64,000 nt of DNA from Ascidiella aspersa. Its lineage: Eukaryota. The notes beneath the pieces were generated by a model. The model had not been told where the DNA came from. It searched no databases and was given only the letters and a program-made list of their open reading frames with translations. The position numbers and the translations under genes were made by a program. How positions within the stretch are numbered: the stretch's first letter is position 1; each line of letters starts with the position of its first letter. The stretch spans positions 12,586,001 to 12,650,000 of the forward strand of contig OZ004612.1 of assembly GCA_963924565.1 (NCBI GenBank). Direction: 5' to 3'. This document shows positions 2,763-63,655 of the stretch, piece after piece.

Positions 2763-5700
2763 ACCGCGCCGGGCACCCCTCCCGCCCGGCACACATCGCT
2801 GATCAGCGCCGCGCGCCTAAAGCACCTTGAGGCCGCCAGCCGCTACAAGCGCAGCTCCTATCCGCGCGCCAGCCTCGACAGCGTCTTTGAGCACGTCCCA
2901 GAGATCCGATCGCCGAGATCCCGCGTAGGGTCGGGCGCCTCTTCGAGGTCCGAGTCCTTCTCCCTTGGCGGCGCGCGCGCGCCCAAAGGCCGGCAGCGCT
3001 TTCGCGACACGGTGCGCAGTATCCTGCGCATGCGCAGCGGCAGGACGGCCGCCGACATGAGCCACTCCCAGCAGCCGGGCCACGGCAGCAGCCCGCATCA
3101 GGCGCGACGTCAAAACCAGCGCCTGATCAACGGAGTGGCGCTAAGGAACGGCAGCAGCGGTAGCGACGCGCAAGAGTCCGGTCATCACGAGGACAACCAC
3201 CCGGCCAGTGTCGAGTCGCTAGTGCGCCGTTGTGCCGAGAGCTTTGGTAAGTTTGGGTCGCCCTTTGTTTGGGACTTTTTGCTCCCCGTGTCGTTGCTAA
3301 ATGGATCAACGACTAGAGCGGGATTGGACAAATTTTTTGACAAGGGGTCCGTATTCGGAACAGAAAAAGCCTTTATTTGGGCAGGGATAAAAGAGGAATT
3401 GAAATACCTTTATGGTTATTTAAAACAGTGTATATGAAAGTAGCATTGTTTTGACAAACTGGTAAGAGTAGGGAAAAGTAAGGTTTCCTTACAAAGATAA
3501 ATTTTGAATCCAGGTTAAAATCGTGAAGGTTTTTTTTTCTGAAAAATTGTTATTCCGAAAAATGCCTAGGCGTAGTTTGTCCAGGTTTGCACCAGAGGGT
3601 AGCCTACAAACGAATATTATGCTCGAAATTTCACGGGAAATTTTGATACGTTTTTGCATATATCCCTCTATTTTTTATCGCCGGTATAAGTGTGTTGTGT
3701 TCTTACAAACTCCAGGAGTGGTCCTTCTTATGGGTTTGACCAAAAATAATTTACTGTATTTTTTTTTGGTGGGCGGGGGATGATCAATGATTTCGTACGT
3801 TGTAGACAAAACTTCAACCTTACGCATTGGTTACGTAAGGGCTCACGGCAGCTCATTTCAAATGAACTTACAAGACAATAGAGATTTTTAGTATTTGCAT
3901 TTTTGATCATTATCCCCTTTAGCTCCTGGGTTGTTTTGGTGTTTTAAGTCGCCCAAAATACCCCGTCTGTGAATATATAGACCTCTGAAGCGGTAAATAC
4001 CCGATTCCTAACGAAGGCTGTTTCTCTTTCCACCGCCTTTAGACGCCGAAGGAAATTGCCGATGCGAGGACTTCCCGCGAATTCTGCTCCTCACCCACCT
4101 CTGGTTTATGACGTCAGAACAGCTCATTGTTCTCTTCACGCAACTATATCCTTTTCGCTACTTTGGTTCGCGCGCTGTGTGTGTGGAGTGTGGATGCCAA
4201 AAATAGCGTCAACCCGAATTAGACGCAATAAGCTGTCTGCATGGGGCGCGATTTGATGGAATGCCACGGCGCAGCAACTAATGTTCGCCCTGTTAAATAC
4301 ATTTTAAAACCGGCAAATCTATTTCATTTTTTTGCAGGGTCTGTAAACCTATTTCATTTTTGTAATTGTGTTGTTTCGACATTTACGAAATGCCGTTCTT
4401 ATGTACTTTGCCCATGTTGCGTTGCAACAGTACAATGTTCAGGGCAACGTTTTCAAGAAAACACAAGTTTTCCGTATTTAACCGTACAGGGAACAGTTTT
4501 TTTTAATAAAATACATTATTCAAACTTCGTAATTTGGCAAACTGATCGTTACCTAATGCTATAAAGAAAGTTTAATTATAGTAACTCGCTTAAGTCACAC
4601 AGCGTACAACATTTGGATCAGGTGTTTTAAGTGGCCCGCGATGAAGCCAGCACCCCGACCCCTTATCGTGTTAGCTTCGATCTACCGACCGTTTCGCGCG
4701 CAGCCCAGGTAACAAATCGAATTGGCGACACGGTGCATTTCGTGTACGGTTGCTGCACTGATCGCGACACGCGTCACAATTTTGGAGAATCGGCTCAGCG
4801 ATTTGCAGTTCCCTGGTGTGTTGTGTGCATTGAGACAACCCGATAATACTGCGGTATACCCTTGTGTATAAATACGTCGCTTGCTCTGTTGTGGGGACGT
4901 TTGAACGAGATTTGCCAAAAATGCGGGGGCGATGCAATTTTCCGACGGCAGGTGCGTTTTGAGCTGTTGTTTCTTGTGGATTTCACCTTTCTCTAAATAC
5001 CTTTGTCTCGAAAGCGAAACATTTGGCGTCGGGTGTATGTTGCCCCGTTGACGAACGGCCGGCGACAATCTGTACGTCACTATAACAGGAAAGCCTTGTT
5101 GGTGTGTAGGGGGGATCCGGAGTTATATTTGGTCGGCTCATTTCCGCGCACAGCATTCGACTGCGTATAGTTTTACGAATACCGCCTTTTAGATCGCGAC
5201 CAATCACTACGCTTATTGTTTACCGCTTGAAAACTCGACCCCAGCGCAGTTTTAGCAGCTAGTCATCACTCAATCATACACACACGCACGCAATTGCACA
5301 TGTACAAAATGCATTCGGATTTGCGTGAATCACAATTGATGGGCGTTGCGCGGAACGGTGATCAACGGCCGGCCGTTGTTATGTGCCATATGGCAGCGCG
5401 CCTGACCGGAAGGAAGATGACCGATCAAGCAGCACTTTCGCATGACTCGCTGGGACGCTGGATACCGGTGTTATTTGGGAAATGAATGCGCTAAATGTGT
5501 TCGCCTTTCCTACAGAGCCGGAAGTGAGTGTTGGAATGCCTGCGCTGGTGATATAGAATCGGGTAATGCGGTTCGCGATGGTTTACACTACTGTGGTAAT
5601 GTTCCTATACTTCCAGTTACCTGACTTCGTTTTGCAGGCATCACTGATAGTTCTGGGTGTATGTTTTAAGTTTTTATCCGTTTTTTTTTCCTTTTAAACG

Positions 5701-8700
5701 TTTTTTTTGTCAGACCGTTTCCGATTGGAAACTGAACAGTGTTAGCGAAAAGGTCTGGTTGTGCTAAATTGTGCTGTCAAATGCTATATGCAAGCAAAAC
5801 TATATACAAGCATAAGTTATACATAACGACACCAAAGTGTAAAGCATTAACGTTAGTTTCGCCTTACAAGCAAACTAATTCGTTGATATAGTTGATTGAT
5901 GGCCATCGAGCATTGATTTCGCTTGAGACACGCAGCTATAGTATATTGCATAACACTCATGTGCGTTTATGCATTCGTGGGATGCCTGCGCTTTGCTTGA
6001 AACCTTCACCAGTTTCGGTAATTTCCCAACGAAACCAATTCATCGCGCTGTGATAAAGCCCCCTGTTAAACGTTGCCTGGTCTGCAGTTTTCATTCCAGG
6101 CAAAAACCCTCTTGGCGGAAATGCTCAGCCGAGCCTCGAAATTGCAAACAATGCCGAGTTGGCCCTTCTATATACGATAAATGGCCTCGTGTGCATAACG
6201 AGATGCACCGATAAGTCCGCTCGCTAGGGGAATTCCCGAATAATTTCGGCGGGAATGCGGGATTTCTATGGCCGCCCTTTCTGCGGAAAACCCATTAGTG
6301 TGTTTGTGTGGTTTCGGCGAACAATCGAAACGTTCGTCAATTCGCCAAAAGCCCATTTGTCGCTGGTACTTTTGCGCCTTGGAATGTTATTTTTCGTGAC
6401 GACCTGAGTTTTCTGTTGTAATTTACCCTCCCAAGCAAGTAAAATCGCATTGTCGTAAAAAAAATCCAGTTAAAATTCGCCTTTAGATGACGTGGCCAAT
6501 AATGTCAGCCTTGCTAATTAGTTGCGAAGTAACAGTTCCAAAATCTTGTCGCTTTAAAATTGATAGTTGCTCAGCTGGTGCAAAACGTGAGCCTTTCATA
6601 ACGATTTCACCACTCAAAACATTTTTACGCGGTTCGAACGTTTGGCTAGTCGCCTTTCGAAACTATAGACGCTAGTAGCAGAGAAAATAAACCTTCGCCA
6701 ACTGAGCGCTTTGCACGTAAACAACAGAATCGAAACTCCCGTTGCAGCTTTTTCGCTCAGACTGCAGTTGCAAAACATCGCGGCCGCAAGAGAATGGCAA
6801 GGTTCCGCCTTTTTTGTAGCAATCAAAACTTGCACCCTTCCTCCCCAACCGCTTTCAGTCTCGAGAATTGGCAAAACTCCCGAAATTGGTTTGCCGCTTC
6901 CGCCGCTTTAGCCCACCGCAACAGACCTGCGCAGCGCGCTGCAGTTCGTTTCTATATTATTGAATCTGTACCGTACTGTACCTATAGTTTATTTCTGTAG
7001 TTGATTTATGGCGAGGAGTCCGAACTGTTAAGTTCCCCCAACGCTTTTGTCGCGGTATTGCGGCCGATTGCACTGTCAGGTGGCTTTTTTTTGTAATGAT
7101 GCAGACAGTTTGCGGCATTGGATCGCTTTAGTTTGGCTGTTTTTCACCTTGTTTATTTGCTTTGTACCCTAGTTAGTTGGTGTGACCTTTGTAAACATTC
7201 TGTTATTTCCATCCCATGCAATAGTTGCAAAAATAACGACCCATGGCCTTTCTTCCATTGCATTTTAGTAGAAACCTTTAATAAATATGTATTTTTGGCG
7301 AAATTTAACATGGCAGGTTCTCGTACTCATTTAATGTATTGTGATTTTCGTTAAATTTTCTTAACTCTTATCGTACATTCGAAGAGGAAAGCACAGCATG
7401 CGACGCCAAGAAATCAGTCTTCTTCGCAATCCAGTAAGTACGAAAATCTCTGCTTCATCATTTATTTTGCGCAAACTGTTTTAAATTGCAAAAAACGTCA
7501 TTGAAATGTTCTTCAAATTGTTTACCATTCCCATTGACAATTACAATGGATAAGACAAAAACAAAGAGCAACGAACATTTTTACAAGCTCAAACTGATTT
7601 CCAAATCGCCATGCATTATATTATCAGCTTCTTGGGCGTGTTCAAAACACAAAATAAAGTTCTGCCATTTCAGATACTGGCTCAAGGAGTTTCCGCACAT
7701 GTTTGACCTTGACCACAACCTGGTGTGCGCCCTGCGTGACCTTCAGGAACTCGCCGCCAACGACCCCGACGTCGACCCTTCCACCATCGACCTCCGTAAC
7801 AAGTAAGGGCCGAGCATAATGTTTGGGGATTTTAGTTATACGTATAGTAATAATATCAAAGCCCATATACAAGTTGTTTTTTTCTTTTTTAAAATGAATG
7901 AAGAGATATTATAATAGTTCATTATGCTACCTATTTCTATTTGGGCGTTGATATTCTTTGCTAACTAAAAAAGTCTTACTAAAACCTTCAACCATTAGGC
8001 TGTAAAATTTATTGTCAGCCAGTATGGAGAACAGACGAGAAACATTCTACACAAGCTTAACCTCATCAGCAAACTTGCCCAAAAGCGCAAGGACGTTTCG
8101 TTTTTGCAGACTTGCCTAGGCTATACATTTTGATACCTAAGTTTGTACGATTCAAGCTGTACATACGAAAGCTGGCACAATAAAATTAATCAAGTTTGGT
8201 TTTGCTTATAGGTGGGGAAGTGTGGTAAAATATACAGTTTTTATGACTCGTGGCTCAATTGTGTTAGATTATTTACATATATACCAGTTATGTCAGTTTC
8301 AACAAACGCAATCAGTTTAAATTAATTTTATAACAGAAATGTGTTGCTGTAATTTGACTTTAGATAATCAAATTATTTATTTAGGTTACTTAAGTTAAGT
8401 CAACTTGTAAAATCAGTAATTTGGGTTTACCCAAGTCAAGTAATTGACTTAAGTCATTACTGGGCAAATGTCATAAACTTACGAAGCTTGGGAAGCCGAC
8501 CAATGACTAACCGCGGCGATTTGGAACTTAACCCATAAAAGTTTTAAATTTAGATTTTAACGTTGTCCGAAAAACATGCCCCATGAGCTAAATGCGCTGT
8601 TCCCTTTCATCTTGTAGACAGGCATTATTTTTAAAAGGATCGATAACCCATCGATTTTGGGTCGGTTGGCCATTCTTCGAATTGGTCGTCTAGACACGAG

Positions 8701-11700
8701 TTAAAAGGCCACTATAGTTTAAAGCAGAATTAGTTTAAATATATTATGTTTGCAATCTGTATCGATATTTAATCATGTGTGCGGGACTTTAGTGTCGCAA
8801 TGCGTTCGTTTCTTAGCGAATTTAAACGTGCGATGCAATGCGTAATTTGCTCGTTAACTGTGATAAATGTGGGGGCGTTGGTGAGAGTGTTACGTCAGAG
8901 TTTTATCAGAATTGTTATGCACGGCTATTTTTATGATTGTTCACCTTATAAGAGAAACAGACGGAGGTTAAAATTACTTTTTTATTACGACAAAAAATAT
9001 ATATTTTTTTAAATATCAAACTGGTTCTTAAACCTTTTTGAACCAGGCATTAGCCAAACTACATATGTCAGAAAATATAACATTGGATAGCATCATTGGA
9101 TAGCGTTAGGAAATGTAGCGTTAGGTAATGTGTTGTGTTACACTGTAACTCACTTAGGATGCCCTGATTGTTAAGTAGTGCATTTTCACGAAATGCCTTT
9201 AATCTCCATTAAACCTTTGTCATGACCGAGTAAAGAAACGTCTGCTTCACTTTAAGAACAATTGATTAAAAAAACGTTTTATAATTTTACAACGAGAAAC
9301 AGTCGGACAGTTCGATTCGCACAGAATAAGCTGCTATACCCACCCGATGACCTTCGCAGCGTCACCAAATGTTGTTGTTTGCCGGCGCCGAATGATAGGT
9401 CAGCCGACAACAGTGCACTCGTCTCTGCTTCGCCTCTGGTTCGCAGCGCGACGGGCAACCGGGTTTAGTTGGCGGCCGCGAAAAACAACAACAGCATAGA
9501 GTCACTCTTTTCAAGTTGAACCGCGACCGAACACCCGTTTCGCGGAAAATCGCGCAAGGTCGGCGCCTACGTCACCAATTTTGCCCGCAACACTTCCGCT
9601 TGCTGAGACGGGCTGTAAAGCGATGGTCGCCAAACTTTGTTTAATGCGGCCTGAAGTACTCTTTTCAGAGCTATTGAAGTCTCACTACGTAAAACCACTA
9701 CGAAAACAGTGGCGGATTCAGGATATTTGTTTTTAAGGTGAAATATCACACGGCGCTGTGATGCCCAAACCGCCGATGTAAAACATATTATAAAATGAAA
9801 AATATACGCTCGAAGCGTGAAAAGTTTTGCGCTAACATATAGTTAAAGTTGGCAAAAAATATAGTTCGACAGGCTTTAAGTACCACATTTTGCACGTGGG
9901 TGAAACCACGCTTAGACAAAAAAATTCTGATACGAAGTTTTAAAATAAAGTGCAACCAATGTACGGCTATTACTCGGCCCACAACTACATGATAACACTA
10001 AGCTATTCGAAAGTAACTCGCGGCCCACTAAAAACGGCTCTGCGACCCACATTTGGACCGGGACCCACAGTTTGCCGACCGCTGCTGTAAAGCATTGTTG
10101 GCCGGGCGATTACGGGCGATCCGACAAAAAAAACAGCGAACACACGCCGCGCTGTTGAACGGTAAATGACCAAGCCAGGTTTCCAGTAGTGCGGAAAGTC
10201 CAGCCGCCCGGCTCTACCCGCATAAAGGGTTCCGCGAAAATCCGTTTTACACGGACAGGTCGTTCCCCGAAACGGCCAGCTTCGGTGGCCCGTCGTTAGG
10301 CGGCCGGCACCTTAGCTTTACCTTTTTCCCGTACTTACGCTCCCGGGGTGTTGAAACGACTTAAAAAGGTGGCAAAGGGCGACTTCTTTGTCTGACCTTT
10401 TTAAATCGCCATGGCACTTTAATCAATGCGAAAATAATGCTGGAAATAAAATTGACGCCAAAATCGGCTAAAAATCCACACAATGAACTACGGCGCACCA
10501 CCATGCTGCAAAAACGCTTACAACTTTTTTATTAGTCTTTTTAAAATATCACTGTTAAGTTCTGCACCCCAAACAAGGCCGGGCGCATCGCAAAGTGCAG
10601 CAAAGCAGAGAGTCCGTGTTCGCAATTAGACTCGCAGTGCGTACGCGCCCTTTGCCAAACGCGCCCCCCGCCATAAACCACGCTCTCGTCTCGCAATCGG
10701 GTCACGAGCCATCAATTAGCCAGGGCTATATCAAGCGCAGTCTGACGCCCGCTTCAAGCACACAAGAGAGTTTCTTTATGAGCGGCAGCTCATGCTACAC
10801 TGCAGTACTACCGCGATCGCGCCCGTGTAACACCGTTGTTAGCTTCGCACGCACTTGATCCTTCACTTTTCTGTTCTCGGTGGACGCTGCTCTGCTATTT
10901 CGCAAACGATGAAGAAGTTAGAAAAGACGTTCAGGTGAAGGATTTGTAGTGGCTGCGTGTTTAATGGCTTATAGATTTGTATTAAGTTAGACGCCGTGGT
11001 GGATTCAGACAGTCTTATGTTGGGTGTAAAAAAGTGATTTGCTGTCCTACTAAAGAGCGTTGTCAAGTCGTTTGTTTAGAAAATGAGTTTTAATTATTAA
11101 ATAGTCCTTGTGCCTGCAGAATATTATGTTTACCATTTTAGTATTTGGATTGTTTGAAATTCAGTATTTAAACTGTTAAAAACTAGGCCTGCCAGAATTC
11201 GCTCTGGGGGATTAACAACAAAAAATGACGGGGAGTTGTTTGGAAAGCTTGGAGTTAAATAGTACGCGAAATCGCGTTTGAATATTCCGCACATCAATTT
11301 GTAATGTAACTTAAATCAGGTTGAATAAAAGCGCGTTGTGTAAGAGTATACCCTACTACCCATGCACGTTTGCCAAAATGCGTGTGCACTGTTTTACTTG
11401 TTTTTGTTCACTTGTAAAACAACAATCAAGTGGTTGGTTAAGGTTGTTATAAAAGGTCGCCGTCCAATTTTACGTGACCCTAAAAAGCGTTGGCAATCAA
11501 ATTAACAAGCTGCTGTATTATTTTTTTCTTTTGTCCGCCTTTCTGGAATATTTACTTAGACCTATAGACAAAATCATATGCATAAAACGCTTAGAACTTT
11601 CACACTTCCCCAAGCGGTTTAAGCGAAGAGGGTTACTGGTTTTACAAAAGCAAGGACGAGTGTCATTGCTTAGCAATATATTATAAGCTGCAACCGTCAA

Positions 11701-14700
11701 AATATTCGCCATTTATTGCGGTTTGGACAAAAAATGACTTTGCAAACCTTTTACACATGAAACAAACTTCTAGTAATGAGATTGATATATTGTGAATGTG
11801 TTACAGTAGTTGTTCAGCAAACGGGTCATACAACCAACGCTTCTAAATTCGCTGAAAATTGCAAGATCACGAATAAAAATCGTTTTCTACCCATTCACAG
11901 GGGCTCGTACAAGTGGATGTCGGCGGCCCACATGTCTATCCGGCCCAATCAGGTGAACCGGAAGCGTCGCAAGGTGTCGCTGGTGTTCACCCACCTGGAG
12001 CCCGAGGAGCTCGCGATCCACATTTCCTATCTCGAGTACAAGAGCTTCCGGCGACTCACGGTGAGTGGGATAACTTTGTATATTATATCAAATTGTCGAA
12101 TCGTTTACTTGGCGATGTATTTGAACGGCTCGTGATTAGTCTTAGTTTGGTCCTTCTATCGCCAAGGCAGTCGATTTTTAAGTATCATAAAATGTCGCTT
12201 TGTCTAAATTTACAATTATGTTTACCTTAAATGGCTCTCTTCACTAAAAAATTGTAACTGAACAGACATCTTATCCTGTTATCTTACTATCTTACAAGAT
12301 TTACATTTTAAATCTATATGAAATAATAGCTGTGAATCTCCTAAAATGGAATCTGAATAGATGGGAACATACTTCTTCTGCCATATTCGGATTACGTTTT
12401 GTATACTACCATAAATGTTTTTTTGAACACTGAATCTGGACCCTTTTGCCTTTCGTCGTTTTCCGTTTGCATTTATTCTTGTCGTATTTTGTGGAACTAC
12501 TAAAATCCCTCGTTAGTTCCAAAAGGCAGCGTGAGGTCATCCGCTGGCCAAAAGTTGTCTCTACCTAGAAGCGGGTCGATCTAGTATTCTAATTTTGGCT
12601 CAAAGTGACTCAGTCTTTTTGTATATTTGGCAAAGGAATTTTGATCCAAAAATAGCGCCTTTCTGTCGTCTTGAATTCTGTCGCGCAATTAGACCTAAAA
12701 AAGAAACGATTTGCGATTAATCGGGAATACCCTCGCGAGAGTTTTAACTAAAACGAAAAAGCCTCGCTTCGGAGAAGCTAAAATGCGAATGTCTAAACCG
12801 TGTGACGGCCGTCTGGCGTAAATGGGGGTGTGTCGGGGGCGTGCGTCGCACTCCGCCAAGTGGACAGGCCACCGGTCACGTTGTAGCCAAATCCTTTTAA
12901 GCCGGTTTACCTTGTCGCTTTACGAGCGCCCATCCTTCTATCTTAGTTTCTCTCTTTCCAACTACTCGGCCATTGAAATCCCTGTTTTGGTAAGTTTTTT
13001 TTTGTTGCCAGAAAAATGGACGCTAACTATAGCAAATAACCGAGAAACCACGTGAACCAAATTTGAAGAACCATCAGCGTAAAAGTGAAAAGAATATAAG
13101 GATGAAACATGCATAAATTATAAAAAAAAAATCTGCGCGTAAACATGCAAAAAAGAGAACAAAACGACGTAAACATGCCAAAAAGATGAACGAGGAACGT
13201 AAACATGCGGTAAAGAGAAAAAAAAGATCGGCGTAAACAAGACGACGAATTGGCCTCGCGTCAACTACACAGGCGAACACTATGAGCTTTGCATAGCGGC
13301 CCGTCGCCGTTGCGCTTTGCGTCATTGGCGGAAGCGTCGTCGCTTTGCCGCGAAACGCTGACGCTTTTAGCGTTTTGTACCAAAAAACGTCCGCCAGTCC
13401 GACTTAATCGAGGCGTTCGACGCGCATTTGTCTTTTATGCGGGATGTTGGCATTCGAGCGTACTAAAATTTCATTTTAACTGACGTTCAAAGCGCTACTG
13501 CGTAAAACCCTACGCTCGCAGTGTTTGTTTGTTCGTGTTTTGTTCGGATCGCACTAACTATACGTTTCCCAATTGAAGTAAACGTTCTTCTTCAATACTA
13601 TACCGTAAGCGCAGTCAATCATCAATAAGAACGAATCGCTTTTCAGCAGGATAAAAACTTTCGCGTCAATGAAATTTAAACCTTAGTGATTTGATTATGT
13701 CGAGTATTTATGCCACCCGTATGCATATTTTTCATATTTTGTTGGACCTGTTTGTCAACTGGCCTCTTTTACAAACCATCCTATTTCCAAAAATGCTCCT
13801 GGCATGACTAATTCACCTGTTTGTCGCACGACTGTTGCAACAATATTTGCCCACGCCTTTGTGCAGCGTTCCTTGCATACCCGCATGTATTTTAGGTGGG
13901 CGAACGCGCCACTCGACCCATCGTGTTGTTTGTCGTAAATACATAATATTATTTGCATATGCCACATCGTTGGTATCCGTCATTATGCTGCAGAAAAGAC
14001 ATGTGATTGATGTGTGATCGCTTAAAATGACTCGTGCGCTTTTGTAGCTGCAGGTCTTAGTCCCTGAAACAAAGAACAATCCAGCAGGCGTTTTTTTGCT
14101 GAATTATAAAAAATCGGCGAACGTTGCTTCTTCAGGTCGTATGCGATTTTATACAAACCGCACTAAAACAACATGCCGCCCCGGTCGTAAAAGAAATGAA
14201 ATGTGTGCGCATTTTGCAAGAAAACATCTGACTGGCTCGTTTTTGCAGAGTTTGCATGCGGCGCGCACGTCAAAGTGACGTAATATAATCTATCGATTTC
14301 TCTTTATCTGCGCCCGCAATGCATGCTAAACCCGTATGCGCCGCTGCCTCTTTTGGCCAAGAGGCTGTGGGGGTTTAAAGTGACGCGAATCGAGATACAC
14401 TTCGCTATTATTTATGCGGACAAAACAAGTTCAGTCACGCACTCGACACAATCTGCCACCAAATACGCATGTTTTTGCTGCTTTGGTCACGTGTTTAGTG
14501 AACTGTTTCGCTCTAAACATGTTTTATATATGTCCAGTGAGCTCTTGGACCAATATCGCACCCTTCTAAGTAAGCCAATTAGCCAATATTTCATGTCAAA
14601 TAGAAGTGTTATTCATATCGTTCAGATAAAACGATATATCGAAATTCTCTCGCTATGCTCACTTAAAAAAACGCAAACGTAGATGCTTGGTAAAGCTGAC

Positions 14701-17700
14701 GAAACACAAGTAAAAATGACTCGTATCAAATTTAAATATTCCGGAAACATCATAAAACTTTCCTTTCCAGGTGTTTTTTCATAAATAGAAGTATTTCTTA
14801 AACGTCGAGCTTGGAGTCATGTACTTTAGGTCCACATCCCTCAAATACCACTTACAGATACAAAACGCTGATGGCAACTCGTTCAGTGCCATTGGGGCAA
14901 CAAGCAAGCAGACTTAAACAACTAGATAATCCTTTATTTCTAATTCGAAAATTAGAGCAAAATGCTTGTGAGATGAAATTGCGATTTAAATAAAATTGAA
15001 GGTGAATAATTAATTGTCATTCTAGTTCAAATTCTGGTTTTAAAGAATTCGGTAATTTTAATTCCAATCTAATTTGAAAAAAGCAAATTTATCTAATTCT
15101 AATCCAATTTGGAAAAACTGAAATGCTACAATTTTAATTTTAATCCAATTTAAAAAAAATATATCTTCTAATGCCGAAGTCTGAGCACAAGCGGTCAGTA
15201 AAACGACCACGAGCACCTTTTCTGACCCACTCTTCCGGCGACGCTATTCCTTTTTAAAGCGAAATCATTGTAGGTTTTTAACCCCTATGTTTGTTTCAGC
15301 TTTCCGACTTTCACAACTACGCGGTTCACGGCGTGATCAAGGACAACTTGAAGCTGGAAAGGGCCGTCTTCCTCTTCAACAACATAACGCACTGGGTGCA
15401 ATGCATGGTGCTCGACCACAACAAGCCGCAGGAGCGGGCCGACGCAATCGTAAAGTTCGTTGCCATCGCCAAGGTAAGATATGATAAGTTCTCGATTCAA
15501 AGTTGCCATCTTTCTTGTGTACACGCGGACTCCAGACATAAGACCGAGATAAGAACAATAGCAACGTCAGAATAAAACACCATTCGGAATAAGGCCAAAT
15601 TTGGACTAATACCTAATAGTATTAGTACCGTCTAAATCGGAATAAGTCCTAAATCTGTCGGATTCAGTCCTAAACAAAATTTCAACTAACCCCAAACCCC
15701 CCACCCCTAAGTACATCACTAACTCCCATAATAATTTCAACACTAACCCATTTTCTAATCCCATCCATTATCCCCTCAATAACCCCAAACAGGACCAAAA
15801 TCCGTTTTATAGATTTTTCTGCTTTAGGTATTGACGCTTTGTAGGTCTTATTGTGTGTCCCGTAAACGCCTGTTATATGCAATTCACGCCTCCTTGTCGT
15901 TCAACGTAAAGCATTTATGCTTCCCCCAAGTAAATTTTAATTTTCAGCAACCGCATTTTTCATTTCAACGTTTATACATTATTTTTGTCTTTTGGTTCGG
16001 TTTCTTACATGCTTTTTACCATTTCACCACAGCCTCAGGGTTCTATGGCTACAAAAATCCTTTGTGCAGATTGGAGGCGAACGGTTTTGCTGATTTGTAA
16101 TTTGTTAATGAAAAATCGACTTGTTTTACAAGCATAGTCTAAAAACACCACACAATCATAAGCAAATTATCAAACGTTTTTAGAGCAAGGTGCTACTTAT
16201 AGTTTCCAAAACAACTTAAATTTATCTATCCGTGGCGGTTTTTCATGTAAATAGACTCCTACTGTAATAATATTTTCTTTGTTTTTCTCTTTCAGTTGTT
16301 TACGATTAACCGTTTAAAATGCAAATCAAGGACGCCCACGCATGTTCGGTAGGGCAGTTAAAGTTAATTCTGTGTCCCGATAGTATTCAAATCGCCCAGT
16401 TACCCGAGAACTCCAGTTAAAACAACACGGGAACGGAAATTAATTTGCGCTATGCCAGGGGAAGGAAAGACTGCGAAAGTCCAATTAAGGAGATGTATTT
16501 ATGCTGGACCACGAGCCGTTCGATCATTTCCGCTTACCCCAACATGCCAATATAACATGCTTATAGTCGTGTCAGGTGCGCGTGCATTACAGTCAGAATT
16601 TTAGTGTCTGGTGCCATTTTTGTGCCCTTAAAAATCGTGCAGACCGCTGTTGTAATGTCGACAATGATGAAGCACGCATTTAATGTTTATATCGATTTCG
16701 CACGTTCCAGAAAACTTGGTCATTAGGATTGTGAAAATTGGTCTACATGGCTATCTTTTAGGGTTTTTTACGATCTCGACACCGAAATACTGTCCGTTTT
16801 GCGACATTCGCTACATGGTTTCTTGTAAAAAACTACGAAAAAAGAGCAATATTTATTCGCAAAATGGGTTAGGCTTAACAGCGCATCGTTTTTTTTTATT
16901 TAAATTCAAGACAAATGACAAGCGACAGTTTCCTTTTACATCGGGTCTCGTGCAACGTTATAACGAAAATATAACCTGACCTACACTTAGCTGTGCTTCC
17001 AATTATCGCTATTTTTGTGGAGTTTCTTAAAACAAGCGTGCCACGGCGCTCACCCCAAATTAGCCAGACGCGCGTACTCTGGCTGGCTTCTAAATCGGGA
17101 GTTTTCTTTTCGAATTGCCGAAGAGACGCAATGCGTTGCCAAAATTCTGTCCATTAGCGTCTGTCCGCGAACAACTGACATTCGAGAACCGCAAATGTAT
17201 ATGTTAAGACTTAGAAACATATTAGCAGTAGTTTGTGGTTACGCCTATTTATTTCATTGTTGGCTCGTTTTGTGGTCAATACCAAGTGTGAAGCTTGTCC
17301 GTTAATATATACCTAAAACAGTTTTTTGAGCTTTGGCTTTAATGGCCACTGAGAAAAAATGTTTTTTCATTCTAGTACCTATTTGTAAGTACTAAACTAC
17401 TAGAAATAGACTTGTTTCGGGGATCGTTTTCGAAATATAAGAGACCGTTTTAACACCTTAAAAAACTAGTAATGATACATATTTCAAAAAAAATTTACTC
17501 GCATTTTTAAGTGTTGTTTTTAAGTGACATCAACCTCTACGACCGACAGCAAACTTGGACTATTCAATGAAACTGAAAAAAAAAAAACAGCCCAATCAAC
17601 AAACCCTAACCTTCTGTTGTGTGATCGCAGAAACTGCACGCTATGCGCAACTTCAACACGTTGATGGCCATCGTGGGAGCGCTCACCCATACCGCCATCG

Positions 17701-20700
17701 CTCGGATGAAGAAGACAATGTCGGTCGTGCCCAAGGACACCCTCAAGGTCGGCTGGCTCACAGTTATAAAAACATTTATTTATCGAAGCTGATTTCGCAG
17801 TTCTTCCGCCTTTTTTATGCGTTCGAGCTTGGCTCGTGAAATTTATTACCGCGAGCTCGACTCCTGGAAACAGGTGGTGGCCTTTTCGCCCGTCAAGTCC
17901 TGGCGCGACTGTGCTGTCTTTTGTGCAAAGCTAAATTTGTCGCAGTGAAAACGTTTCTGCCTTTACGTCAAACCGGTCAAATGCCGGAATTTCTTTATGC
18001 CACTTTTATTGAAATATGCCATATAATCCTTTTTGGCGTTTTCAGCGGTAAAACTAATCCTAAAGAATGCTAGTCCGTTATATGAGTAAATTGTGGTTTC
18101 TTTTTTTACATATTATTCTAGCAAACTTTAATATATTGGGTTAAATAAAATTTGTAGGTTTGGGAGATGTACATACAATAGGCTTGGTAAAAGTAGTTAA
18201 AATGAGCACCAAATCGATACGACCTACTCTAGCTTCTTTAGATTCAAGATATGTTCTTTATAGCAGGATTCACGAATCCGCCGAATTTCACGAAAAGGTA
18301 CTATACGTCAAATCGTACAGTCTTTGTCCGCAGTGCTCAAATGTTTAAAGTCACGAGTTATAAATGGGGCTATATTCTTTTTGTTTGCAGACGTTAGATG
18401 AACTCGTCGAGCTTCTGGACTCGAAGGCAAACTACTGCGCATACCGACGCGCATACCAGCAAATCACCAACGAGTTCAAAATACCCGTCGTGTAAGTACA
18501 TATTTATATTTGAAAATAGTAAGCATATTATATTGTACATTTACATATTATATAAGAATGGTCGCTTCAGAAGTTGCTCATTATAGAACACCGGAAAAGG
18601 TATTTGTTGGGCACGGCAATCAGTAGACCGATAAGAATTTGTTTGCAAGCATGGCATTGGTAGATAGAAAATTTAGGGTGCGCGATATTTATACTTGGCA
18701 AAAAAATCATATGTATTATTGTTTGGAACTAGGATCAGATACTTGAGGCGTAATATCTCTGTATTTCTTGCGTTTCCAAATCTTGTCTTTCAATACCGCT
18801 TTCAACAAATAAACTGTCCTAAATGTCCTTCTCCCCGAGTATAAAATGATCCTACTGAACTCTCGCGCATTCCAACCTACGAGAATAGGCCGTTTTGCTT
18901 TTGTCGTCTAACAATCTTTAAACGGGCCTCGTCTTTTGTACGCAGTGGCATCCTAATGAAGGATCTGATCGCCCTGCACGCCGCCTACCCGGACCGGGTG
19001 GGAGATGAGCTCATCAACGTGCGGAAAATGATGATGATCGGCGGCATTTTTCAGGTCAGTTAAAAGGCGCTAATCTTGTTTGGAAATATTCACTTTAAAT
19101 TGAATAGTTGTCTGATTGAAACGCTTTTGTTAAGACCCCGTTTTAAAACAACGGTATTTGGCCAGATCTTCCCCGACTGACTGCTTTCTTAAAGAAACTA
19201 TTGACGTTTAAGGAAACTTTTAAACTTTTATAAAGTATTGGTCGTAGCTACCAAGTCGGTAGGTCGTAAGTTTGAATCTCACAGCCGACAAACACTATCA
19301 ACAATTTCTGTTTTTTCCCAAAGCGACCAAACAAAACCTCACGTAGTATATCGGTATGCGCCGCGACAGTCGCTCGGCATGGCTGTCTAATTGGGGTGTC
19401 TGCGCATGTTTTTCGATCAACTCCACACATCCCCAAAACGACCTAAACCCAACGTATTCTCGCAGGAACTGACTGCGCTGCAACGCACGCCTTTCCCGTA
19501 CGAGGTGAACCGCGACCTGGTCAACACCCTACGCGTTTCGCTTTACCTCAATTACAGTGAGGAGGAAATTTACCAGCTGTCGGTGGTGCGCGAGCCGCGC
19601 GACGTCAAGCATAGCACCTCAGGAAATGTGAGTGCCAAATAAGCCTGCTCCGCTGAGGCTATCGTAGGGCTAGGGCCACTCCATCATACACAGGGCATGA
19701 AATGCTCGGAAACGCATAAGCGTACAGACTTAGCTCTTCTGCGGGGATAGAAATGTCGGGCTTTTGCTTGGCGTTTTTACTTTCGCCTGCTTCTCTGTTT
19801 AGCTAACCTTTGGCAAACTTGAAAAAAGTTAAAAATGAAAACAAAACAAACTAAATTTACTTGAATTTTATCTGGTTCGAATAACGCCAGTTGTAGTGCA
19901 CATTTCCCACTAAAAAAATCGACAAAACTGTTGAAGTATTTGTTCTAAATATTTTATGTGTGTTTTAAACGCAGCGATCACTTGCATTCTAATACCGTTA
20001 CCAAGTGTGTTTTTTTCATAAATACATAGCTTTGCCACAAGAGCGGAAAATTATGGGTTTTCGCCATTTATTTTGCCTGACGCTTTGTCTCGTTTCGTCA
20101 TATGGTGTTGAAAAACAGGCAGGCGTCTATGTGATCAAAAATCCATTATGACACCTAATTTTTTTGGAAACCTTAGAAAGTGCGTTTTTCATCTTCTGTT
20201 GTCTCCCCAATCGTTTGCCTTCCGCTTAATCGCCTATTCCCGATTTTTTTATTCGGCTAAAGCATTGTTTGTTGTTATGGCGAAGGATATCAACATACCG
20301 TTTTGCGCCCCTTCAATCGACCGTTCACCCCCAAATTACTTAACCTTTCCTCGTTTGCTTTGCAGGGCACCTCGCCTTCCCGCTTCATCAACATGGGTTT
20401 CGCAGAGTTTGCTCGCTACACCTGCCAGCTTGATCGTGAAACCATCAAGGAACACGTCAACGCTATGGTCCAGGTCTGTATGGCGTTCGTCAATTGGCCT
20501 CGAAGTCGCGCTTACAATGTATTTTATTGGGACAAGAATCTTGACATGGTGCCCCAACATGCCTAACTGAGATTTTTCGCCGGCCGACAGGATCCGGTTA
20601 TACACGCTTGTGACCTCGTTCAAAAAATATTAATGTTTTTTGCCGTAATCGCTAAAAAAATTAACTTCTCCAAAATGGCTGGTAAATGGTACGCTCGGGT

Positions 20701-23700
20701 TTAAAACAAATTCTTTCGCAATTCATTTTAAATTTAAAGGTTAAAAAATCTTTGGCGGCCATAACCGCGATAAAGGCGAGCAAAATAAAATCCACGCCAA
20801 ATGCCTGAATAAAACCGCATTCACCAAATTTGAACTGACTTTGATGCAAAACCTTTTGCGCAGAGCGTCTTCAAAGCCTACGACCTAAACGCCGACGGGT
20901 TCATCTCGGAAGCCGAGTTCGAGTCCTTCATCCAGAACTTTCCTGGGCTCGACTCCTTCGCAACGGTCGACAAGGACCAGTAAGTGTGACTATATACTTT
21001 CGTCGTTTCCCCGTAAATCGTCCCGTCGCGCCGCGCGAGCTTGTAAGTCTTGACAGCTCACGAAAGGTGTCGGGAGAAAATCTTTGGTTTCACACCTGGT
21101 CTGAACGCGGCCTTATCCCGCTTTTGATGTTGTAATCTTGCAAACGCTTAAAGCCCGATCGCTGAAGCAAACAAGGATTGCGCATTGCTAAGCCAAGCTG
21201 TATAGGGGATTTTTGTTAACCGATCAATGTACATTGTACATTGTACCAAGATCACGTATACAACACCGAAATAAGCGACCGCGCAAAAACAGCATATCGA
21301 AATAGTTTTCTAATTAAACCTTAACCCCGGTAGCCAAGTCTACCCCTCATTCCGCACCCATCGTCCATTTTCTCTTACCCGTTATGCCTTTTAAACCATT
21401 ACGCCTTTTACACTTCCTTGTTCGTTTCTTGAAAAGCTTCAAATGGGCTCTTTTTTTGCTAATTTTTTTATGCCTAAAACCAGCCAATGGAGATTGTTGG
21501 AGTCGCGTTTTAAGGCATTGTTTCTCTATAAAATAATCGTGGTAATTAGTTGTGTTTTTTTAAATCCAGTGATGAAAAAAACGTTTATGCAAGCGCTGTA
21601 TGTAGAATGAATGTCCAACTTAGTAAAGTAGCAGTTTAAAATAATTTTTAGTCTTTGTAAATATATACAATACACGCACCATGGTAAAATTTAATAAATT
21701 GACTATGTTGAAAAAAATTAACGAATTATTCTTAACTTTTAAAATCACGTCTCACTACAACCTCCATCCACTATGTTCCAAGCGTTGTATGACTGTTATC
21801 GTTATTCTCACACTTAAAGAATCGTGCCACGTACAGGGTTGAACAAGCGAAAATAATCAAGCGCATGAACAAGCGAAATAATCAAGCCCCTAAAAAAATG
21901 CCTCCTCGGCGTCTATTTCGGTCTGCGCCGATGGCCTGGCGTCCGATTGTGGCGTAAACAACCTCCCCGTTGCTAATCCGGGCGCGTCGGCGTGATTGAC
22001 GACTCGGATTGCTCGGCCGCCCAAATTGCCACTGTTTTTCTCGTTTTTGTGGGAGCGATTCGCGCTACACACCCACCCCATCATGTTGTTGTTGTCTCAT
22101 CTTTTCTTGCTGCTCTTTTTGGACCTTCCATCAGGCTTTGAAATTTTGTTTCGTCGGACAAACGCAAACGTAAACACAGCCGGTCCAACTGTATTTTAAC
22201 GATGTACCGAGCCTGCACGGAAATAGGAATCGCATTTATCTCGCAAAGCGACAAAATCAAATCAGACTTTTCGGGGAAAAAGCCTCCGTTTCCACCAAAA
22301 TCTAGTACTCGGCATTAAGGTCATATACCTCCACATTTGAAACTATATAGAGGTGACTTAAAACGCATTATGATTCTGGGGGGGGGGGGGAGAATTGCAG
22401 ATCTTAATATTGGGGTAGACGTACTCTTGAACGTTCCACGAACTAATCCCCTTGTTTATTTTTTCTAAGGTATCAATAAGGAAAATGTGCTTTTACCGTT
22501 CGAATGTAAAATGTTCAAATTTCCGTTCGCACGTTTTCAGATGGCATCGCCCAAATTGGGGGAAACGATAAGATACCGATAAGATTTTCTGGGCGGCCTT
22601 TTTAGTCGAATCGTGGACCTCAAGGTGTACGTGTGATCGCACAAACGGTTTGTTAACGACGTTGTTGTACTTTAACTCTATTAAACTCTCAGCTTCCATT
22701 CTGGGTCTAAACAAAATGCGATCCGTCCCGATAAGAAAGCATGGGTTTTAGCGCCGTCTTGCGGTAATTTTAATTGTACATTGTTCTTTACCAGGGATGG
22801 ACGCATCAGCATGGCCGAGATGCTGGACTACTTCCTTAAGATCAGCTCGACGCGGCGCAACGAGTTCACGCAGAGCTTCAAGCACGACTTTGTCGAGACC
22901 AGCTACTTTCACCCGACGTTTTGCGAAGAATGCGAAAAGCTGGTAAGCGGCTCATTGTAAAAAAATCGCGAGACAAACTAATATAGTACGGCCAAATAAG
23001 ATGAAGTGCAAAAGCTGCCTAAAGATGTCCAGTGCCTAAATACGCTGTTTTATTATCAAGTGAGCCCGGCATCTGCCACTTGAGGGACCAAAATTGTCTT
23101 TCTTGTCGTTCTCACATTGATTAATCTTTCAATAATTAAGAACCACTCTTTAAATTAAGAACCACTCTTTTTTAAAAATTGTTAAGGCAGGATCCCCAAT
23201 ATTTCTAAACTTACATAAGAAATTTTCTCTGTTTGTCTATAGCTATAAATTATGTAAGTGATACTCATGTTCACGTTTAATCACTTGTGGATTTGTTTCA
23301 CCACGCTTACCATCATAAAAACAAGTTTTTTTCTTTTTTTCAGCTCTGGGGCTTGGTGAAGCAAGGATGGAAGTGCAAAGGTGAGCGCATTTTACCTATA
23401 GTTAAGAAAAAAGTCTCCCGACTGATTTGTACAGTGTACTGTACTGTACAGTGCACGTAATGGTTAGGCGAGTGATGAGGCAATATGGTGACACCAAAAC
23501 AAACGCTAAATTTAGACTCGCTTTGTTAGTTGCGTTTGTCGCAAATACTCACGCGCGCCAAGCGTCCTTATTCCAGCCCCAGGGCGCGGGAAGTAACCGT
23601 GACGTCATCGCGCTTACTGACGTCACTGCACTTAAGCCCGTCGCCGCCAGGTAAAACGCACGCCTGGCCGCCTTTGATATGACCTATAACGTTTAATCGT

Positions 23701-26700
23701 TGTTTCGTGTTACCTACTGCTACTGTTTAGTTGGCGGAAGTCTGTGAGATTAGGTCAGGGTTTAGTGACACTTTGACGTTTGTGGCAGCAGCGCTGTAAA
23801 TCGCCGACCCAGCTGTGCTATATTGTAAGGAAAGTAGCTTAAGGTGATTAATGCGATAGTGGCAGCTTTATAGTCCTGGTGTTCATGGAACTGTTTATTG
23901 TTGTAGGAACAGACTATTTGATATTTTGTATATGCATTTTACTTATTGGTTATTTAGTCTTGCACTATGTGTTTACTTCGAGGTCAGTATAGTTGCGCAA
24001 GGAAATTAAGGAGTTTGGGTATGTGTGCAATAGAATAGGTGCGAATGTAAGACAAACAGAAAAATGAAGTTATATGTAAGAAACTTAGTCGGACCGTTAT
24101 TTATAGTGTGTTGTGTGTGAGTCGGTGACAAAATACAATCTTCGTATAATTTTGCAAGAAGTTTGACCTTCTACAAAACAGGGTTTTGACCTACTATTAT
24201 CTTTTACTGCTAAACTATGTAAACGTTGTAAGTTTTACAAGATTTATACTTATTGCGCTCAAGCTTTGTATTGGAACAATTTGTGTTTCACGTATTCGGA
24301 TTACGTGAATAGCAATATGTTATTAACTTTAGCTAGCGCTCCATTGTAGATCTCGTACTAAACAAGCTTCGCTGCGTCGAAATACACCGGGAAGGATTTC
24401 TAAATAAATATTTCGCGTACATTTTAGGTTGTATATTTTTTTGCCGTTTATTTTTGGTAAACTAATCATGGAACCATAAAGCCACTAAGTGTCAGGTTTA
24501 TTAAAATCTAACTCCGAGGGTGGGACGTGTTGATCGATACTTTTTTGGAGTGTTGCCCGATCACTCGAATCTTGGGCAGAGCAGACGTGGAAATTCTCGC
24601 CCCCCGTAGCAAACACACGCAACAACATTCTAGCCTTAATATTTTTCTGTTGCCAAGAGCAAATCTAGTCGAAAATTTCGGCAAAATAAAGAAAGTGAAA
24701 TACCTGTGGCTTTTTTGTCAGCGTCCGCTCGATTCTTCCGCGAACCGTGTTTTCCCTCCCGCGGCCACGTATTGCTCCAGCTGTCGTCGTTTTCCGTAGG
24801 TTTTAAAACCGGCAAGCTTCCACCAGCCTCAACAGCAACTTCCCTGTGACGTAACAATGGCGTGCTGTGATCGTGCGTCTTTCAAACGAGAGTGGCACAG
24901 CAGCCTTGCAGGACGAAGCGCCGAGCTCAGCACATAACTGTATGTTGCGCGCGCTTACGTCAAGCCCTGAATGCTCAATTCACGTTTTCAGCACGCGCTT
25001 GCGCACTTACCCATTCCGCTGGGGCGGAGGGCCGCAAGCCCATAATATAGTTGGTTTACTATTATAGACAGTCGTAGTTTTGTTGTGAAGTGGCAACTGT
25101 TCGATGGCTACAGACAGGGCGTGCTTTTGTTGTTAACTTTTTAGTTCAGTTTAAAAGCAGTAGAGCAGTTAAAGCGTGGATATTGACTCCAACTCTACTC
25201 TTGCGATTCTATTGAGGTGTGTTTTATAAAACAAATCTCAGGCAAGAATGTATTTTTACCTTTCGTTTTATCTCCGTAACTTTTTGTCAATAAAAATATT
25301 CCAAAATGTATGGTAAATTTAATGCATAAATACGCTTTTTATTATCAAGTTAGTACTTGCGGGTATAAGTAGGCCTAGGCAGACAAAAATTTGTCTTATT
25401 TTTTAATTTGAATAAGTAGAAAAATCTATATTTTTTTAGCCGAATCACATTTTAATGTTTCCGCCGTATAACGCTGGCACAATTTATTTTTCCTACATGA
25501 GTAAGATCTCTGATTAAGGCTCTCGATCTTATCACTGCAAGACAGAAATGGCAGTTTCTCGATACCACCCCAACTCAGCGTTTCGTGTCTTAACACGAGA
25601 CATGACAAGCGCAGTGTGCCAAATGTGGGGTCGCGACGCATTCTAAAGGCGCACGATCGAGGTCAACATCCTCATAACTCTGACACCTCGCACTTTTGAC
25701 ATGAACATATTGCTGGTCACGATTGTAAGCTCAGATAAAAGGCAAGTCGGCTTTGCGTGCGGCGAACTACAGTGTGACATGTACAGAGTCGTGACAAGAC
25801 AATGGCACTGTAAAGTCAGAGTTGTAGTCGGAATTGACAGGACGAGTTGTAGCACGTAGTAGCTCCCAACGCCGGTTGGTAATTTATTCGCGACTTACTC
25901 GCTCATCTCTTTGCCAACTACTGTTTCAGCTCGACAGAAAGGAATATATAGAGGCCTATTTTTGGACCGACAAAAGACGCAGCCTCTTCCTTATTGGCTC
26001 TGTTTTTACGTAGGCATGCTTTGCATTTTCTGCAGGAGTTGCGCCGGCTAATTGCTTTAGCAGGTCAGTGGCTTAGAAACCGTCGTTGATTAATTGCAGG
26101 TTTGACAGTTTCTATAAGAACGACTATAAGACCCTACTACCGAGGCCAACGGTTGTAACAGCAGCTCTGCATTGAAGTGCTCGCTGGCCTTTCTTTCGGC
26201 GTCCGACGAAAGTCCACCAGCCTCGCTTCTACGAACTCTTATGTTTTTAACCAAATTCGTGACCGGCTTTGCTGCGTCACTACGGTTCAACCGAAGCGAT
26301 GCAATTACGCCGCCGGGCACGCTTCGCCCTTTGTGTACCATGCAACCGCATCAGACTTTAACGCAGCGTTGTCCAACCGGCAGCGGTGATACTATACGGC
26401 TAGTGTGCCGACGCAAAAAAAACGGACCATCGGCATGTGCCGATTTACCACCGGTACCTATAGCGAAATCGCATTAGCGTTGGTAAACCGGTGACCCGGA
26501 ATTGAGCGTGAGGTTACGAAGCCAGATTAGCCGTGTAACTATAGGATTTCCAGAATGTAGTATAGGTAACTTTTCAAAGATGCGTCTCTTCAGTTCACAT
26601 TTTAGTGCTCGCTTTAAAAGGAAATGTTTGTTTGAAGGTCACTTTTTGAACGGATATTTTAATACTTTTTTGTTTGTGTCGTGCAAAGGACAGGCACTTA

Positions 26701-29700
26701 GCCTCCATAGGTCAGTAGTTGTGTTTCGTTAGTCGTTTGAATTTATTTAAACTAAACAGCGATGCTGCCATGGACTATTCAGATGCAAATTTAAAGATTG
26801 CTCGCATAGCAAATTTACTGTTCTTGAAATTTGGCCAACCTTGACAGACACAGTAAAGCCATCGATTTCCATACACCAGAACTGGGTAAAATAGAAAAAT
26901 ACTTTAGCGGAAACACTTAACTTTGTTTTTATTTTAGAAAATAAATGGCGTGTTTTGTTGTTTTTAACGAGCTGCTGTTCTTTAAAGCCCAGTCACATAA
27001 TAAATTGCGATTTACATGAAACTGATTGTGAATAATTAAATGTAATTCTAGTTGAAATTCTAGTTAAAATTCTTATTTTAAAGAATTCGGTAGTTCTAAC
27101 TCTAATCTAATTCGAAAAAAACAAAATTTATCTAATTCTAATCTAATTTTAAAAAGCTAAATAAATCTAGTTGTCCAAGTTGATCCCCGGTATCGAAATC
27201 CTTTGCGGACCGAAACGCCGTTTCGTTGTTAACCAACTCCTCATCATATGTAAACTGGTGCTACCAGGCATAGTAATATTAATAAAAAACAGCTCCTCAG
27301 GTAATCGTAACCAACTCCTCCCCATTGATGCTCAGATTGCGGCATCAACTGCCACAAGCACTGCAAGGGTCGCATCGTGCAGGAGTGCCGACCGAAGAGC
27401 TCCGCCCGCAACGGTAGCGTCGCCTCGCAGTCGCAGGCGCTCGCCGGGAGCGGCAAGAAGCACGAGAAGTCCTCCGGATCCGGAGCACGCGACAAATCCT
27501 CAGTGTCCTCCGAGTCGGATATGTCGGCCAACGGAGGTGAGAATGATGCTCGTTTTTTTTTCAAACGGCTGGATTAAAGCGGTTTGGCGCTGGAGTTTAC
27601 CTATACGCCCTGCGAGTCATACAGACGTTTACATATTTGTTAAATGCCAATGGAATTCCAGCGACCAATTAAGGCAAGGAGTTTGATCATGGTTAAATAT
27701 GTTTAACCTGTTGACATCGCCTCTGGATTAAATCATAAAATTGTTGTAATGCTATGATTAGTCGCATGTAATGCTATGATTAGTCGCGATGTGGCGTAAA
27801 ACATATATTTGCAAATTTTGTTTAAATTAACTCTATATGGTTGTGTTATGTTAGCTTTTATATATTTTCTCCGCGCCTTTTTTAATCCAAAGTCGTACTA
27901 TAAAAAAAGATAAAACGTTGCGATGTACGAAAAATAAAAACAACGTCGCGATGTACGAAAAAGCTAAAAAAAAATAGGTTAAAACGGTTGGTCGTTTGGG
28001 GTAAACATTTAAAAAACAAGGAGATCAAGCGAGTCCGTTGTTACGGGCCGACATCTACCCCCATCGACCTTTACAATAAAATCCACGTCACCGACGAGCA
28101 ATTACCACTACGTGACGTCATAGCTGACAGTTTTACCACCCGAAGGCTGGAGGCTCGTCGCGCTTTCGCCCGTAAATTCCGATGAAAATTTGATGAGCTT
28201 TGTTATTCAACCATACCGCAAATCCTTCGACGGCTGATTGGCGCGCGAACGTTCCGTTGTTTAGTGGTTTAACATCAACACGCCGCTCCTCGCCGCACGC
28301 GCGCGCGCCCTTCCAGTTATTAGATTAATATTTTATGAAATTGCTTCGCTTCGCTGTCGTTTGACGCAGATATTGCACCGAGCGGCGAGACCGCCAGACC
28401 GCGCTGATCGATAACTTGCCCCGTAAATTTGCCCCTATTTTTGTCCCCGCGATAAGCTTATGTAAATTTCCTTTTCGCGGAAGCACGCTCGCGTATAAAC
28501 GTTTTTTTCAGTATGTGATTCAACAAGGCACGATTAGGCTTACGTTTTATTCGGGTTATCGTTTTTCCACCGTTTGAAGTCCACCCCTCCTTATATAAAA
28601 TTGACGTTATTTTTCAGTATGTGACTTACCACGGGGGCTTCGGACACATTTTTATCGGGCAATATTTCCCCCTCGTTTCAAGTACGCCCCCTTCTTATAC
28701 AATATTAGGAGATAATAACATGGTGGTGAAAAGGGCTTTGATCTGCCTACGACTTCCTGGCAGGCAGTTTGTAAAGACGATAGGAAGCTTTTGGGGGATC
28801 CCTCCGTACAGCGCGTTATGCTCAACATTTTTTTGAAGGGATGACTTTAACGAGATTTAATAGGAGTTCAAAATCGAGTCAATCTGCTGCTGTTATTCGG
28901 TTGTTCGTGATATATATTACGTGAAAACACAGGAGAATAGTTCGAATTGCGATTGTCTGTATTATAACTCTAAAACTGTAAAATATTTTACTCATACCGC
29001 CTTCAAAAAGTCTTTAGTTAAGAATACGTGTTCAACTGCGATACATACATAAAACATTAAAAATTTAAATTAACGTCACTGTCTTCCACAGACGGACTTG
29101 GTCACAGCGGCATCCACGCCGTGATCGAAGATGAAGCGTTCGAGATCCCACAGTATCACGTCAAGAGCGGTTCAGGAGCAGCGTCAGGAGCAGGAGGAAA
29201 GTCTTCCCAGATGAAGCGGTCCACTTCCCTGGCAGCGGCTGACGTCCACTCGACCCGGATGCGCCTGGACCCGGGCGGCGAACATCGCAAGGCCAAGCTC
29301 TCGTCCAAAACGCCGCCGCCGGTTCGCAAGGCCTCGTCGCCCATCCTGTCGGCCGGCAACATGTCTCTGCAGCGCAAGATGCACAACTTCATGATCTCCA
29401 AGAAGCGAAGCTCGGTCAAGCGCGCGGTCAACGACGCGGGCACGCAGACGCCGCAAGGGGAAATCCCCGGCGCCGTAGCGGCCGACGACGCAGCCGTGGC
29501 CGTTTCGTCGTTCCTCTACGGCAAAGCACCGGTTTTAAAAGAAGCCAGTGTAAAGCAAGAGCCGTCCATGCGTTTGGGAAGCACCGGCGAGGAACTGAGC
29601 GACGAGAGGCCCTCGGACGCCGAGGGGGAATCCCCGCCGCCGGCGTCACGCGCTGACGTCACGACGCCGCTGCGGACTCGCGGCGTCCACGGCGAGGCGC

Positions 29701-63582: not shown

Positions 63583-63608
63583 TATATATATATATATATA
63601 TATATATA
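63583..63608. repeat. (TA)n microsatellite
   Basis: About 13 TA units just downstream of the paralogous SMPDL3 stop codon. Confidence 0.9.
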
Positions 63609-63655
63609 ATTATATATCATTATGTGCGAATTAAAAAAAGTAAAATGTACCTCAA

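Follow-up and report, generated by a model that had tools for sequence, protein, structure and literature searches.

Evidence for a phase-2 AT-AC intron with U12-type signals in the REM-coding region of an ascidian RasGRP gene

Each of the four human RASGRP genes is catalogued as a minor-intron gene (MIDB, PMC6717393), and the minor intron of mouse Rasgrp3 is its intron 4 (PMC5224493). Ascidians also have minor introns: 113 U12 introns of Ciona intestinalis are recorded in U12DB (PMC2831892) and 104 in the supplement of PMC7367187, with the AT-AC class making up 23% of the Ciona U12 set (PMC7367187). Many minor introns have been lost in tunicates (PMC10639083), and larvaceans have lost the minor-splicing machinery (PMC13326754). 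The stretch analyzed here, referred to below as the window, comprises 64,000 nucleotides (nt) of Ascidiella aspersa contig OZ004612.1 (positions 12,586,001 to 12,650,000) and carries a gene of the RasGRP family. We are confident that interval 4146-7376 of this gene is a phase-2 AT-AC intron with U12-type signals, a likely substrate of the minor spliceosome and a likely orthologue of the minor intron found in vertebrate RASGRP1-4. With all four human genes catalogued and ascidian minor introns known, a single intron of this kind is expected. RASGRP is not named in the parts of the supplements on Ciona U12 introns that were searched, although the underlying online databases may list it; likewise, the literature search yielded no paper stating an ascidian RasGRP intron or a shared REM intron position, which online intron databases may nevertheless list.

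The intron and its predicted signals are as follows:

4146..7376, plus strand: U12-type AT-AC intron of 3,231 nt, phase 2, in the REM-coding region of the ascidian RasGRP gene
4146..4155, plus strand: U12 5' splice site ATATCCTTTT, with predicted pairing to the U11 5' end and to U6atac of the same genome
4204..4206, plus strand: TAG stop codon in the reading frame, 59 nt into the intron
7356..7365, plus strand: U12 branch-point sequence TTTTCTTAAC, with position 7364 as the likely branch A
7375..7376, plus strand: AC 3' splice site, 9 nt past the end of the branch sequence

When position 4145 is joined to 7377, one of the three frames is open, and the junction falls in phase 2, between the second and third bases of a Leu codon. 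The homology to RasGRP proteins breaks exactly at the donor and returns exactly at the acceptor, and the proteins of C. intestinalis, Clavelina and Styela are continuous over the junction, with a gap of at most one residue. The donor ATATCCTTT gives an 8/8 match to the U12 pattern RTATCCTT after +1, compared with 1-4 of 8 for the other 15 introns of the gene; these 15 of the 16 introns in the model are GT-AG, and the remaining one is the AT-AC intron. The branch sequence starts 20 nt before the junction and agrees with TTCCTTAAC at 8 of 9 positions, which places the likely branch A 12 nt upstream of the last intron base. Both signals are rare in the window. The motif [AG]TATCCTT occurs six times in the 128,000 strand-bases of its two strands (twice as ATATCCTTT), and by eye none of the other five donor-like sites has an obvious coding frame upstream. 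TTYYTTRAC lies within 30 nt upstream of only 23 of the 7,546 AC dinucleotides. That a U12-like donor and branch sequence should together coincide with the two edges of the break in homology goes far beyond what chance would produce.

Candidate splice sites (70 donors and 29 acceptors) were combined into pairs, which were scored by mean BLOSUM values against four homologues. Eighty-five pairs left an open frame, including 17 GT-AG and 18 GC-AG pairs, and the AT-AC pair 4146/7376 ranked first (score 343, versus 329 for the runner-up). The first-pass annotation of this stretch, made from the sequence alone, had proposed a U12-type AT-AC intron at these positions; donor, branch sequence, AC, open homologous frame and rank among the 85 pairs all bear this out. 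In GT-AG intron 19628-20365 of the same gene, positions 20336-20344 also show an 8/9 U12 branch-like match, at -30, yet the donor there is of the major type and the match is probably due to chance.

The gene model within which the intron lies comprises the following elements:

2763..30587, plus strand: RasGRP gene model with 17 exons found, 1053 codons and no internal stop, encoding REM, RasGEF, EF hands, C1 and a long tail
2763..3246, plus strand: non-initial coding exon 5' of the REM exons, with AG before and GT after it
4043..4145, plus strand: REM-coding exon of 103 nt, preceded by AG at 4041-4042 and ending in the phase-2 split Leu codon
7377..7433, plus strand: REM-coding exon of 57 nt, followed by a phase-2 GT-AG intron
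7674..7802, plus strand: REM-coding exon of 129 nt, whose 3' intron corresponds to the human RASGRP2 c.371/372 boundary

The gene belongs to the RasGRP family by its architecture of REM, RasGEF (CDC25), EF hands and C1. EF-hand and C1 profiles match exons in the window, and the closest homologues carry RasGEF, EF hands and C1, together with a REM domain that scores below the Pfam cut-off. Exon 11902-12060 shares 92% of its residues with Ciona RasGRP, 87% with Clavelina and 72% with Styela; its PDB matches are RasGRP1, 2 and 4 only, and it has a single match in its own genome. Placement of the intron in the REM region of a RASGRP gene, as first annotated, thus agrees with both the homologues and the PDB matches. 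A tblastn search of the 12.7 kb upstream with the N-termini of four homologues, aimed at the upstream coding exon and start codon, gave nothing under E 0.29. Several introns of the gene contain high-copy repeats (approximately 7860-8000, 9650-10100, 14940-15060 and 15570-15860), over which the summed depth of read set X2 reaches up to 113,721, compared to about 100 elsewhere.

The likeness to the vertebrate genes extends to the level of single nucleotides. The donor is identical to the donor 12-mer of the human RASGRP1 minor intron at 11 of 12 bases, and the 12-mer at 7355-7366 is identical to the branch 12-mer of the mouse Rasgrp3 minor intron, scored 86.6 there (PMC6717393). As in human and mouse RASGRP1-4, the donor is of the U12 type and starts with AT. 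Human RasGRP sequence was absent from the results of the homologue search and PDB chains were used in its place; the vertebrate intron position was taken from these chains together with the donor 12-mers in the supplement of PMC6717393, which include three exon bases. The human RASGRP1, 2 and 4 donor contexts are all compatible with a phase-2 intron in the codon of the residue that precedes a conserved Tyr (3 of 3 testable), and a gapless hand alignment puts this residue of the PDB chains in the column of the Leu that is split here. With the mouse Rapgef4 donor context added, 4 of 4 testable contexts fit, and the probability that all four would do so by chance is ∼3e-5 by a hand count of compatible trinucleotides. 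The neighbouring introns agree as well: the RASGRP2 splice variants c.74-1 and c.372-3 mark two human introns, a phase-1 intron in codon 25 and a phase-2 intron in codon 124 (PMC7037602), which match, in codon and phase, the introns that follow exons 2763-3246 and 7674-7802.

These correspondences support orthology well, and the vertebrate RASGRP minor intron is the likely counterpart of the intron described here. The earlier proposal that the intron is ancestral in the RASGRP family is upheld by the exon-end trinucleotides of RASGRP1, 2 and 4, which fit the same codon and phase in all three testable contexts. The lengths are also close (3,231 nt here, 3,307 nt in human RASGRP3 and 3,754 nt in mouse Rasgrp1; PMC6717393). 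Unlike the four RASGRP paralogues of vertebrates, the ascidian gene is single and its splicing is read from sequence; in addition, the minor intron of RASGRP4 ends in AA, compared with AC here.

The first-pass annotation had also supposed that the organism retains a minor spliceosome, and all four minor small nuclear RNAs were indeed found in its genome, with one match each above the Rfam cut-off: U12 (105.1 bits), U11 (90.8), U6atac (90.9) and U4atac (79.5). In this respect A. aspersa resembles C. intestinalis, in keeping with the known persistence of the minor spliceosome and of AT-AC introns in ascidians. Read by hand, U11 is complementary to donor bases +4 to +10 (six Watson-Crick pairs and one wobble), U6atac to bases +2 and +4 to +10, and U12 to the branch site (eight pairs and one wobble, with one bulged A). 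By analogy with established minor-splicing biology, U11 would bind the donor at +4 to +10 and U12 the branch sequence, with an A bulged out 12-13 nt ahead of the AC. U6atac would next displace U11, and the two REM exons would be joined inside the Leu codon. If the intron were left unspliced, translation would stop at 59 nt and the protein would be cut inside REM; such a transcript would likely be non-functional and prone to decay. Skipping of both small exons shifts the frame. The first-pass annotation's further suggestion, that minor splicing may be rate-limiting for RAS-GEF output, is taken over from a general hypothesis. For human U12 introns, retention is on average twofold higher (PMC4066798), and a broad survey argues that much of minor-intron evolution was neutral (PMC10639083).

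The database model of Ciona savignyi RasGRP (P0001) reads Tyr-Pro-Phe after the conserved Leu and has lost the next exon. This signature is the same as the read-through of the window sequence past the AT donor, which implies that the C. savignyi gene carries the same donor. It was present in 1 of 48 aligned RasGRP homologues. Similarly, a Saccoglossus model of the exchange factor C3G (P0052; 1 of 9 C3G matches) stops a few residues past the same signature. Both models read through the AT donor, in line with the earlier expectation that gene predictors would mis-model these exons, and the analysis flags these two database proteins as wrong gene models. The Tyr-Pro-Phe signature could serve to spot read-through errors of this kind.

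To our analysis of the RasGRP gene we added a search of the A. aspersa genome with the REM profile PF00618. It gave seven exon matches in five genes and missed RasGRP, so the census is partial. Three of these genes have an intron or donor at the position of interest:

G000:C4:12870905-12871754 (L013): AT-AC U12 intron of 850 nt in C3G/RAPGEF1 (gene named by homologues), with donor ATATCCTTT and branch sequence TTTTCCCTTAAC
G000:C6:15421107-15421310 (L016): GT-AG intron of 204 nt in SOS, with major-type signals
G000:C9:10826013 (L015): phase-2 GT donor of the L007 gene, with the downstream REM exon ∼3.7 kb further on and the acceptor not pinned

RasGRP, C3G, SOS and the L007 gene all split alignment column 36 in phase 2, so that the site is shared by four of the six REM genes seen. 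The SOS donor (AG|GTATGCC) comes close to the U12 pattern, although +5 is a G, and a U12 branch site is absent; this intron is possibly a converted minor intron. The L007 gene, which we take to be RalGDS/RGL-like, has its best PDB match in SOS (E 3e-4), and Atlas shows RasGEF_N only. In the two remaining genes the column is uninterrupted. The REM exon of an Epac-like gene (L010:1501-1761) runs continuously through it, which suggests a precise intron loss, and the second gene is presumably PDZ-GEF-like.

Human and mouse RAPGEF1, 3, 4, 5 and RAPGEFL1 have minor introns that all begin with ATATCCTT, and the RAPGEF1 donor context fits the Tyr-Arg split of the A. aspersa C3G gene (PMC6717393). For mouse Rapgef4, the donor context is compatible with REM column 36, at which the Epac-like gene of A. 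aspersa has no intron. RGL, RALGDS, SOS1/2, RASGEF and RASGRF do not appear in the mouse/human minor-intron table that was searched. RasGRP, C3G, Epac, RGL and SOS form distinct subfamilies throughout the bilaterians (PMC3141262), and therefore a shared intron would predate them. From the sequence comparison, the REM intron site probably arose before the RasGRP family. The first-pass annotation, which placed the intron at the base of that family, did not say that it predates the family, as now seems to be the case. The account that we favor, with some reservation, is that one minor intron was present in an ancestral REM-CDC25 gene before the split of the RasGRP, C3G, Epac, SOS and RalGDS-type genes, and that it was kept as an AT-AC U12 intron in RasGRP and C3G, converted to GT-AG in SOS and the L007 gene, and lost in the Epac-like gene. 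Minor-to-major conversion is the usual reading of the direction of such changes.

Transcript evidence was sought by placing four read sets (X5, X3, X4 and X2) on positions 2300-21100. Of 7.79 million X5 reads, 509 were placed, mostly on repeats, and the X5 intronic reads (0.47 in the AT-AC intron, 0.48 in a GT-AG intron) are uninformative on retention. The X3 set contains a contig of 2,299 nt (depth 31.5) with a piece on 2763-3245 (positions 266-748 of the record). The contig looks spliced, because this piece stops at the borders of exon 2763-3246. In the bin 3554-4180 the X3 depth was 5.23; 5.22 is expected, by hand arithmetic, for 104 nt at 31.5 over 627 nt.

Several points weigh against the AT-AC intron as described here. 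Scores 343 and 329 lie only modestly apart, owing to the variability of the residues that follow the junction. The 4145-7377 joint is not among the 15 joints listed out of 105, all 15 of which come from repeats, and the raw RNA depth on the RasGRP exons is below 2. The fit of the X3 depth presumes that one contig covers exon 4043-4145 and that X3 is RNA. The vertebrate position is derived from three exon bases rather than from a genome alignment, and RASGRP3 is not represented among the PDB chains used. Finally, 35 frame-keeping GT-AG or GC-AG pairs exist on paper. The last point bears on the idea that the major spliceosome joins the exons at nearby GT or GC donors (e.g., 4157 and 4166) and AG acceptors in the next exon (7384 and 7396), with the U12-like motifs as relics. 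The C. savignyi model that runs past the AT donor would be in keeping with this, as would the loss or conversion of many minor introns in tunicates (PMC2831892, PMC10639083). However, every one of these pairs scores below the AT-AC join and adds a Tyr-Pro-Phe stretch that is missing from the C. intestinalis, Clavelina and Styela proteins. Most other introns in the gene show a GTRAG-type donor pattern; the alternative donors do not, and their acceptors lie in purine-rich sequence. Indirectly, the X3 depth also has room for only ∼104 exon bases, since the expected value would be ∼5.7 with the GC donor 4157 and ∼6.2 with the GT donor 4166. We therefore regard such joining as very unlikely. Removal of an AT-AC intron by the major spliceosome, as described for sodium channel genes, seems to us extremely improbable. 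U2-type AT-AC introns do exist, with 15 in human (PMC1557818), and 10 of the 14 bases preceding the AC here are pyrimidines, but the class is defined by a donor that is U2-like except for base +1 (PMC1557818). Intron 4146-7376 has no such donor: all eight positions after +1 agree with the U12 pattern, and a U12 branch site is present at the expected distance.

The shared position could, alternatively, reflect independent insertions at a favored site in C3G, SOS and the L007 gene, the RasGRP intron itself being a real U12-type intron. In favor of this, two of the six REM genes seen lack the intron, SOS and the L007 gene carry major-type GT donors, and the RasGRP and C3G REM domains are divergent enough for the alignment register to slip. 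Moreover, the reverse, major-to-minor conversion has also been proposed (PMC11347168). On the other hand, the same column is split in the same phase in four genes, in a stretch aligned gaplessly among them, and it is improbable that the rare AT-AC U12 signals found in two of these genes arose twice at one nucleotide. Repeated insertion is thus an unlikely explanation, and descent from one ancestral minor intron is preferred.

The RasGRP intron described here widens the range of the RASGRP minor intron to include a lineage in which much of the minor-intron set has been lost. If the common ancestry is true, minor introns that are counted apart in up to nine human guanine nucleotide exchange factor genes would be one ancestral intron. 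In that case, the reported over-representation of minor introns among RASGRP and RAPGEF genes would reflect a single inherited intron and not convergence on Ras signalling, which would weaken arguments from pathway enrichment. The paralogues would also provide a series for the study of minor-to-major conversion.

Other open frames and exons were observed elsewhere in the window. Exons on the minus strand at approximately 33000-35400 belong to a gene arranged tail to tail with RasGRP, which we take to be WSC-domain sulfotransferase-like. Further on, a 124-codon open frame on the plus strand (40060-40431) presumably encodes a membrane protein resembling RAB5IF/C20orf24, and it is followed by a 207-codon plus-strand frame rich in Lys and Ser (40925-41545). 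Two adjoining open frames at 55018-56185 (plus strand), which are in different frames, look to us like an interrupted transposon-type gene. Minus-strand exons of another gene, presumably an acid sphingomyelinase-like phosphodiesterase, extend from approximately 57269 to 64000.

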